64,000 nt of DNA from Escherichia coli (lineage in GTDB: Bacteria > Pseudomonadota > Gammaproteobacteria > Enterobacterales > Enterobacteriaceae). The DNA lies in the NCBI RefSeq assembly GCF_024502345.1, contig NZ_JALDNN010000001.1, one strand, 5' to 3'. Shown piece by piece: positions 62,634 through 63,259 of the stretch. The notes below the pieces were generated by a model. It had not been told where the DNA came from. It was given only the letters and a program-made list of their open reading frames with translations, and ran no database searches. Made by a program: the position numbers and the translations under genes. Position 1 is the first letter of the stretch; every line of letters begins with the position of its first letter.

Positions 62634-62755
62634 TTAATGAACTTAATGATACAGCATTACAAAAACAATCGAAGTTTATAAAGATGATTCCTGATTGACC
62701 AGAACCCTATCCTACAATGGTGACTAATTTTATTACTCCCGATGGAGATGATGAT

Positions 62756-63259
62756 ATGAATATATCATATGTGAATAGCAACAAAACGACATCTTTACCT
62801 GTTGAGCTAGATGCACTAAATAATAAAGATATCTCTTATGCCAAAGATTTTTCTTATGCTAAAGATTTCTTTTTATACATAGAAACACAGTTAAAAATTG
62901 CAAAAGATTTTTGTAGACCTGGAGAAGAAGTATCAAGTTCTATTGCAAGTAAAGTTTTTCACGCATTTATTGATTTAGTTAACAAAATCAGGGGTAAGAA
63001 AGACTTTATGTATATTTGCACGCTTTGCTGTTTTGCCGAGGAGGTTAAAGGTGATTATTCTCATTACAGGACCTTTTTATTTGATATTGGTAATCAATAT
63101 AAGGTTAAACTTACACAAAGCGGAAAAAAAGAGCTCTCTTTAACTTTAGAATTTAACGATACTATAATTGAATCTCAGAAAGTCACAGGCAATAAGGCAA
63201 AGCATATTCTTGAGGATATAGAAAAATTCTATCGTAACAAACCCGATACTTATTATTAA
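62756..63259 (+). CDS. Low-GC hypothetical protein (possibly an extended yjbS-like gene)
   Basis: 167-aa ORF from ATG 62756 with GGAG 7 bp upstream (tool ORF starts at 62717); Lys/Asn/Ile-rich, no domain I recognise. Confidence 0.5.
   Translation: MNISYVNSNKTTSLPVELDALNNKDISYAKDFSYAKDFFLYIETQLKIAKDFCRPGEEVSSSIASKVFHAFIDLVNKIRGKKDFMYICTLCCFAEEVKGDYSHYRTFLFDIGNQYKVKLTQSGKKELSLTLEFNDTIIESQKVTGNKAKHILEDIEKFYRNKPDTYY

Follow-up and report, generated by a model that had tools for sequence, protein, structure and literature searches.

We analysed the interval between aphA and tyrB in a 64,000-nucleotide stretch of Escherichia coli DNA (RefSeq assembly GCF_024502345.1, contig NZ_JALDNN010000001.1; hereafter the window), where an earlier note, made from the letters of the sequence, had pointed to an open reading frame (ORF) of 167–180 amino acids in an interval of about 1.1 kb. 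Both are as described. The interval measures 1126 bp and holds one long frame on the plus strand (62717–63259), which encodes 180 amino acids from ATG 62717 or 167 from ATG 62756. As set out below, this ORF appears to be the full-length form of a gene that is known in K-12 as the 67-residue yjbS, and it is intact in a large minority of complete E. coli genomes. The features that define it are as follows:

61641–62354, minus strand: aphA, the left flank of the interval
62717–62755, plus strand: 13-codon in-frame upstream extension from ATG 62717, with no Shine–Dalgarno sequence before that ATG
62744–62747, plus strand: Shine–Dalgarno sequence GGAG, 8 nt 5′ of ATG 62756
62756–63259, plus strand: full-length yjbS-family ORF of 167 amino acids, for which the NCBI Prokaryotic Genome Annotation Pipeline (PGAP) uses the equivalent ATG and in whose frame the ratio of non-synonymous to synonymous substitutions per site (dN/dS) is lowest
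63481 to beyond 64000, minus strand: the 3′ part of tyrB, the right flank of the interval

The ribosome-binding site, which the earlier note had judged to be good, is present before ATG 62756, and most other alleles carry AGGAG at its position rather than the GGAG of the window. The upstream extension has no such site and differs among alleles by five amino-acid-changing differences and one silent difference; we therefore took 62756 as the start, and the NCBI pipeline places the start at the equivalent ATG in every genome inspected. The extension (62717–62755) is probably 5′ untranslated region and not coding sequence.

The low G+C content (GC) and the richness in Lys, Asn and Ile that had first drawn attention to the ORF are also present. 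GC is 0.28–0.33 over 62500–63400 against about 0.5 in the flanks (0.49–0.53 in the flanking genes), with values of 0.30 for the ORF, 0.315 for the AT-rich insert that contains it (delimited below) and 0.527 for the whole window, and the protein contains 12% Lys, 7.8% each of Ile, Ser and Leu, and 6% Asn. The open stretch exceeds chance for DNA of such AT-richness: the longest in the insert is 186 codons, a length reached by none of 5000 first-order Markov shuffles (mean 69, maximum 175). We found no yjbS paralogue in the 64-kb window, and an Rfam search of 61500–64000 gave no match at E ≤ 1.

We compared the interval with that of a K-12 derivative. The K-12 interval is 1106 bp long and aligns end to end with that of the window at 97.1% identity. 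The suggestion that the interval itself is enlarged was thus mistaken, as K-12 is just 20 bp shorter and only the reading frame is longer. Annotated K-12 yjbS (b4621, 67 amino acids) lies at the same site and on the same strand and begins at the same ATG as the window ORF (62756). Residues 1–46 of K-12 YjbS match the window protein save for one absent 6-residue repeat unit, and the last 21 of its 67 residues are out of frame; the divergence past residue 46 is due to a frameshift. Alleles differ at three sites within the ORF:

62825–62870, plus strand: 18-nt in-frame tandem repeat in 2.6 copies, encoding KD[IF]SYA units within the predicted disordered N terminus
62908–62913, plus strand: TTTTTG site, of which G 62913 is absent in K-12-type alleles
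63124–63130, plus strand: run of seven A residues (A7), an indel hotspot, present as A6 in K-12 and 22AR0434-type alleles

Relative to the window, K-12 has one copy fewer of the 18-bp repeat, an in-frame difference that is shared with intact 161-residue alleles, and two 1-bp deletions. Loss of G 62913 converts GATTTTTGTAG to GATTTTTTAG, which creates an in-frame TAG stop and gives the 67-residue product, and the second deletion removes one A of the A7 run at 63124–63130. The O157/O55 allele has a 10-bp deletion (63121–63130) that spans the A7 run and, with one repeat copy fewer, yields a product of 119 residues in O157:H7; AR436-type alleles have a 2-bp deletion at 63133, beside the run, and 22AR0434-type alleles have A6 alone. 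The copy number of the repeat differs among strains, giving forms of 161, 167 and about 173 residues, with one copy fewer in K-12, O157 and the 161-residue alleles and an extra copy in one record. A further allele, that of SCU-308, carries six insertions at scattered points, five being single bases, and its frame breaks are probably a sequencing artefact. Both K-12 and O157 carry the DNA of the ORF region, at 93–97% identity, with indels that break the frame. Since the K-12 lesions lie in this same DNA, K-12 yjbS is, to judge from sequence comparison, in effect a pseudogene fragment, a broken copy of the 167-residue gene that is intact in the window. The earlier note had proposed that the ORF might be a longer or ancestral form of a strain-variable yjbS; the comparison agrees with this proposal, with the lesions at G 62913 and the A7 run explaining the 67-residue form.

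A megablast search located the 1126-bp interval in 4378 of the 5426 complete E. coli genomes, in almost every case at full length, with 93–99.9% identity. The comparison of the aphA–tyrB interval across E. coli, which had been put forward as a check on the ORF, thus places the segment in about 80% of complete genomes, with an intact frame in about half of the carriers. The latter figure comes from 60 of the 4351 records that match the ORF, sampled systematically in even steps down the match ranking and classified by match length only, by which nonsense substitutions are undetectable:

Match of 504 bp, 28 of 60 records: full length, in frame
Match of 522 bp, 1 of 60 records: extra repeat copy, in frame
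Match of 484 bp annotated yjbS, 20 of 60 records: K-12 type
Other match of 484 bp, 2 of 60 records: AR436 allele length, assigned from length only
Match of 503 bp, 3 of 60 records: A6 allele length, assigned from length only
Match of 476 bp, 5 of 60 records: O157/O55 type
Partial match, 1 of 60 records: truncated

A full-length, in-frame ORF was thus present in 29 of the 60 sampled records, equivalent to ~48% of carriers and ~39% of all complete genomes, and 30 of the 60 had lengths that imply a frameshift. The K-12-type allele extends beyond laboratory strains to isolates from pigs, humans, cattle and seawater. Among 20 alleles that we translated, 15 had intact 167-residue frames (nine identical to the window ORF and six divergent), and wherever a disruption was characterised in the sequence, it proved to be an indel located at a run or repeat. 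An alignment of 15 alleles contained at least four distinct sets of indels, indicating that inactivation was independent in several lineages.

Because three independent classes of indel lie at or beside the A7 run (63124–63130), and A6 alleles make up about 5% of sampled carriers, we considered whether this might be a phase-variable contingency gene in which the A7 run and the T5G site toggle the frame by slipped-strand mispairing. Runs of 5–7 bases are, however, short for programmed switching, the second frameshift of K-12-type alleles and the 10-bp deletion of O157-type alleles cannot revert, and the alleles are fixed across whole lineages and not mixed within them. We give phase variation hardly any credence.

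Annotation obscures the intact form. At nine loci, RefSeq/PGAP labels ORFs that are identical or nearly identical to that of the window as a ‘frameshifted’ pseudogene of 223 bp, in many cases alongside a separate 83-residue coding sequence (WP_000275035.1) and otherwise on its own, yet the sequence holds no frameshift. This mis-annotation presumably arises from measuring against the broken K-12 protein, and it leaves the real protein almost unseen in curated databases.

Patterns of substitution bear on whether the intact frame is, or has been, used. Across eight distinct intact alleles from complete genomes, the mean number of non-synonymous substitutions per site (dN) was 0.019 and the mean number of synonymous substitutions per site (dS) was 0.077, giving a dN/dS of 0.25; in the same eight genomes dN/dS was 0.012 for aphA and 0.09 for tyrB. 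The other five frames over the ORF gave values of 0.41–2.09, so that the annotated frame is the lowest of the six and the selection signal belongs to it. Addition of six divergent alleles from the protein database raised the number of alleles to 14, with dN/dS values of 0.40 for the ORF, 0.03 for aphA and 0.075 for tyrB; the divergent alleles, down to 87% protein identity, all sit at the aphA–tyrB site. A minimum-change count gave 40 non-synonymous and 24 synonymous changes, where 80% were expected to be non-synonymous (binomial p = 6.5e-4). Given this low, frame-specific dN/dS, the frame has been under purifying selection that is weak but real. The earlier note had named a lack of coding conservation across strains as one finding that would tell against the ORF; we found conservation, with frame-specific dN/dS values of 0.25–0.40 across divergent alleles.

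The same data allow a less favourable interpretation to be weighed, namely that the ORF is a dead relic, the still-open remnant of a functionless foreign gene in which constraint is left over from an earlier history or is an artefact of composition, and whose intact copies have so far merely escaped damage. Such a relic could be expected to carry frame-breaking indels, as about half of the carriers do, in at least four independent kinds, and to diverge freely, as seen in amino-acid differences between alleles that reach 13% within one species. It would also sit well with K-12 data suggesting that the region is bound by H-NS and poorly transcribed (PMC3661553), and with the finding that no homologue turned up outside the yjbS-family gene among 1.84 billion representative proteins. 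A 167-codon frame at 30% GC should, however, gain stops fast, yet the disruptions characterised among the 20 translated alleles are all indels at runs or repeats; the excess of synonymous changes is both frame-specific and significant; and alleles up to 0.18 synonymous substitutions per site apart stay open. We regard a relic as possible but, on these grounds, doubtful.

The encoded protein has a predicted mass of 19.4 kDa, an isoelectric point of 7.6 and a grand average of hydropathy of −0.42. Hydropathy over 19 residues peaks at 0.73, too low for a membrane-spanning segment to be predicted. The N terminus, MNISYVNSNKTTSLP, is polar and predicted to be disordered, in which it bears a resemblance, and only that, to a Type III secretion effector signal. 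An AlphaFold2 model built from six allelic sequences (predicted template-modelling (TM) score 0.66; mean predicted local distance difference test score 68) has residues 1–32, including the repeat, as disordered, followed by helices at 34–52, 61–77 and 81–92, five antiparallel strands within 95–144 and a final helix at 146–160. Prediction is best in the C-terminal sheet and helix, with block means of 73–89, and this moderate-confidence model suggests a soluble alpha+beta protein. Residues C53, C91, C92, H69, H103 and H150 are invariant in six aligned protein variants, and C88 is Phe in one of them.

That the protein has no recognisable domain, as the earlier note had stated, was confirmed by each collection searched. 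Pfam gave no match even at E ≤ 10, NCBIfam and PHROGs gave noise only, the PADLOC-DB defence models gave 0 families at E ≤ 1, and the best match among PDB sequences was to SipA at E = 0.68. For SUKH / SMI1-KNR4, specifically, there was no Pfam SMI1_KNR4 match and no significant structural match. With HMMER, 1.84 billion representative proteins yielded nothing but fragments of the yjbS-family gene itself, and a word-indexed search across 5.8 billion proteins found only alleles and frameshift variants from Escherichia. Foldseek against AFDB50 found self-matches together with weak matches to uncharacterised proteins of E. coli, Shigella and Salmonella (E 1e-4 to 1e-3, TM-score up to 0.5), with Q8XC25, A0A2X2HGS0, A0AAN3TTQ2 and A0A7U0K863 among these weak neighbours. 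The profile- and structure-based searches that had been recommended for this protein thus revealed no related family and no informative structural neighbour.

Several candidate relatives were set aside. Four proteins with 59–76% identity (P0018, P0031, P0057 and P0052) looked like distant homologues and proved to be the same gene read through compensating frameshifts. Two more, P0063 (locus L023) and that of locus L033, were rejected as coming from error-ridden assemblies, because the neighbouring genes are fragmented into short ORFs. We also made no use of a metagenome contig of 2.2x coverage (L034; ENA ERZ1745361 NODE_1519), which is 89% identical to the window overall and has a yjbS frame that barely differs from the E. 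coli A6 allele; the contig may be a chimera, be rich in errors or carry a recombinant aphA.

We scanned one genome per species, 100,044 species in all, for the invariant peptide VTGNKAKHIL in degenerate form and obtained a single matching contig; the scan tests this one conserved 10-residue motif only, and the E. coli representative in the set evidently does not have it. The matching contig, filed under ‘Flavobacterium paronense strain CECT 8460’ (NZ_JAUFQN010000013.1, 9467 bp), was rejected as an E. coli K-12 contaminant, as about 4 kb of it is 99.5% identical to K-12 yjbR-aphA-yjbS-tyrB, with 20 gaps. Eight matches in the plasmid collection PLSDB (five records of 0.66–4.9 Mb, one of 373 kb and one of 17 kb) were likewise not accepted as mobile copies; judged from the records, which were not individually inspected, they appear to be chromosomal sequence filed as plasmids. 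The 17-kb record, a ‘Klebsiella oxytoca plasmid’ (NZ_CP069917.1), carries a K-12-type yjbS, which suggests contamination or misassembly. With no relatives in the protein or species-wide searches, the gene appears to be confined to E. coli.

A restricted gene of this kind could be more than an ordinary orphan. It might have founded an undescribed, Escherichia-only family with its own fold, arisen de novo or from an unsampled mobile element and serving a specific conditional role. The product may then be a secreted or injected factor, in keeping with its polar, disordered N terminus, or a connector or inhibitor that is freed from H-NS silencing in the host, and repeated loss in K-12, O157 and others would reflect niche-dependent selection. 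The weak Foldseek matches could point to a wider hidden family. We consider this proposal unlikely.

The boundaries of the insert were set by comparison with Salmonella enterica and with the B2 strain Nissle 1917, and involve the following features:

62355–62476, minus strand: aphA upstream (promoter) region, conserved with Salmonella and B2 E. coli and outside the insert
62477–63479, no strand: AT-rich insert of ~1.0 kb, GC 0.315, absent from Salmonella; B2 has the kguS/kguR island instead
63448–63471, no strand: GC-rich hairpin GCAGGCTGG-GTAGCT-CCAGCCTGC, immediately past the tyrB stop codon and at the insert's right edge

The tyrB–aphA spacer of Salmonella enterica is 186 bp; homology runs up to the tyrB stop and resumes from 62476 leftwards, and window positions 62477–63479 have no counterpart there. 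Nissle 1917 shares only 62355–62486 of the interval and has, in place of the yjbS insert, a 13.7-kb block with nine annotated genes, among them those for a sensor kinase, a sigma-54 regulator, a transporter, an oxidoreductase and a second 2-oxoglutarate dehydrogenase / succinyl-CoA synthetase set. The Nissle block is the kguS/kguR island of UPEC and B2 strains, which serves alpha-ketoglutarate utilisation and has been described in CFT073 (c5032–c5041) as inserted between tyrB and aphA (PMC3694859). It occupies the same junction as the yjbS insert, from the aphA promoter region to the tyrB stop, but differs from it in size, in a GC of about 50% and in its known metabolic and regulatory function, and past the shared 130 bp beside aphA there is no similarity between them. 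The ~1050 genomes without the yjbS segment presumably include B2 kgu strains, of which Nissle alone was examined. Given a Salmonella junction without the insert and a B2 junction with an alternative island, we read 62477–63479 as a lineage-specific insert and the tyrB–aphA junction as a variable site.

The earlier note had taken the low GC to mean horizontal origin. A foreign or lineage-specific origin is plausible from composition and outgroup comparison, as Salmonella does not have the insert, its GC is low and the K-12 table considered below lists a predicted foreign gene, but no donor was found. The insert had no match in phage records or in IMG/VR, only short, chance-level repeats flank it, and no integrase was found at it. 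As for an origin de novo, Salmonella is without the insert DNA altogether, and the one-motif species scan found no copy outside E. coli.

The post-tyrB hairpin is presumed to be a terminator common to the convergent tyrB and ORF transcripts. It was missed by a simple terminator scan, which gave one terminator-like site, on the minus strand near aphA. One arm of an 11-nt inverted repeat, AAAGCAGGATG / CAGCCTGCTTT (62474–62484 and 63464–63474; 10/11 complementary), lies within this hairpin; the repeat stands at both insert edges and is probably due to chance. Insertion sequences occur in the region in other strains: IS1B lies downstream of the ORF in Res13-Lact-PEA14-20, IS1A lies in the interval of a K-12-type strain, and IS150 disrupts aphA in 22AR0434.

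Beyond aphA, the window annotation gives two further genes:

60754–61110, minus strand: yjbR
61114–61530, minus strand: yjbQ

Between yjbR and uvrA, Salmonella enterica has two small genes without a Pfam match (112 residues, and 147–151 residues); E. coli is empty at this site, making it another variable junction nearby. On the other side, Nissle 1917 (NZ_CP172017.1, 4614900–4640000) has an extra AAA-ATPase/pnuC pair between tyrB and alr, as in B2 strains. One locus (L026) has both the yjbS insert and the pnuC pair, so these two variable sites assort independently.

Published K-12 data connect the locus to H-NS. A published list of 78 ‘promoter islands’, AT-rich segments that bind RNA polymerase and H-NS with little productive transcription, includes the K-12 tyrB/yjbS interval (318 bp from 4266514). 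The interval is flagged there as H-NS-binding, from summaries of K-12 chromatin immunoprecipitation on microarrays, and is also marked as overlapping a predicted genomic island and as linked to a predicted foreign gene (Shavkunov/Ozoline list, PMC3661553). Binding by H-NS is known for this K-12 counterpart only and is predicted for the strain of the window. If K-12 tyrB ends near 4,266,333, as we take it to, the coordinates would place the island over the decayed 3′ two-thirds of the ancestral coding sequence and not over a promoter region. K-12 yjbS is also among genes with unexpectedly few transposon insertions, in a list that includes iraM and safA (PMC5821084); this would fit H-NS coating, a suggestion that is ours and not that of the authors of that study. 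Clones from two macrophage-evolved populations, independent of each other, had IS1 inserted at nucleotide 193 of yjbS (PMC4999529). The intact allele is probably silenced by H-NS.

These observations raise the possibility that what matters at this site is the DNA itself, as an H-NS-coated promoter island or as a spacer that insulates the convergent tyrB transcript and the divergent aphA promoter, with the frame incidental. The place of the K-12 interval among the 78 islands, where it is marked as H-NS-binding (PMC3661553), would then be expected, as would the retention of the segment near full length (1098–1144 bp) even where the frame is broken. A role of this kind leaves the frame-specific excess of synonymous changes unexplained, however, and both Salmonella and B2 E. 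coli do without the block at the same junction. The region has five promoter-like sites against a shuffle mean of 5.8, so such sites are not enriched. We consider a role at the level of DNA very unlikely.

We favour, with a probability of roughly 0.6, the interpretation that the ORF is a real orphan gene, specific to E. coli and carried by a small AT-rich insert, which the species can do without: it is under weak constraint, has been lost repeatedly and is probably silenced by H-NS. That this gene is yjbS, how it is distributed, how far the insert extends, the signal of selection and the absence of homologues are directly supported. An intact accessory gene restricted to E. coli would thus sit alone on the ~1.0-kb insert, between the tyrB stop and terminator and the aphA promoter. 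It would evolve fast under weak purifying selection, so that it would be, or recently have been, functional, and it would be inactivated independently by small indels, mostly at short homopolymer runs. Under laboratory conditions H-NS would bind the AT-rich DNA and silence it, and this would account for the lack of any knowledge about the gene. Its product may work by binding to other proteins and not by catalysis, as a small accessory factor of the connector or inhibitor kind.

Several points weigh against a live orphan gene. The dN of the ORF is 8–40 times that of its neighbours and roughly half of the carriers are broken, so any function may be marginal or niche-specific. The alleles taken from the protein database were chosen as full length, which biases them towards intact frames, and long-read sequencing may have introduced some of the single-base indels in public assemblies. 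The standing of the full-length allele as a transcribed and translated gene is read from its sequence. No significant structural neighbour was found with a model that rests on six near-identical sequences, and the protein-binding mode of action is a low-confidence guess from the size of the protein, its lack of motifs and its lineage restriction.

The orphan gene that we favour has much in common with H-NS-bound, AT-rich xenogeneic islets and enterobacterial ORFans: ~31% GC in a window of 52.7% GC, a short single gene, absence of homologues, fast evolution and absence from the Salmonella site. Small soluble products of AT-rich genes also include the connector and anti-adaptor proteins IraM, IraD and SafA, which are lineage-restricted and H-NS-repressed. 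The analogy is in kind only, as we detected no similarity in sequence or structure between them and the 167-residue protein. Overall, the gene appears to be an ordinary AT-rich, lineage-specific ORFan, and gives no sign of a new mechanism.

An intact 167-residue gene stands at this site in about two-fifths of complete E. coli genomes, and RefSeq consistently annotates it wrongly; K-12 yjbS is best treated as a pseudogene fragment. By their coordinates, the K-12 promoter-island data would touch a decayed coding sequence. For the species as a whole, the locus offers, at a single fixed position, a clean natural set of alleles, some intact and others broken independently, that suits a study of how orphan genes are retained and lost.

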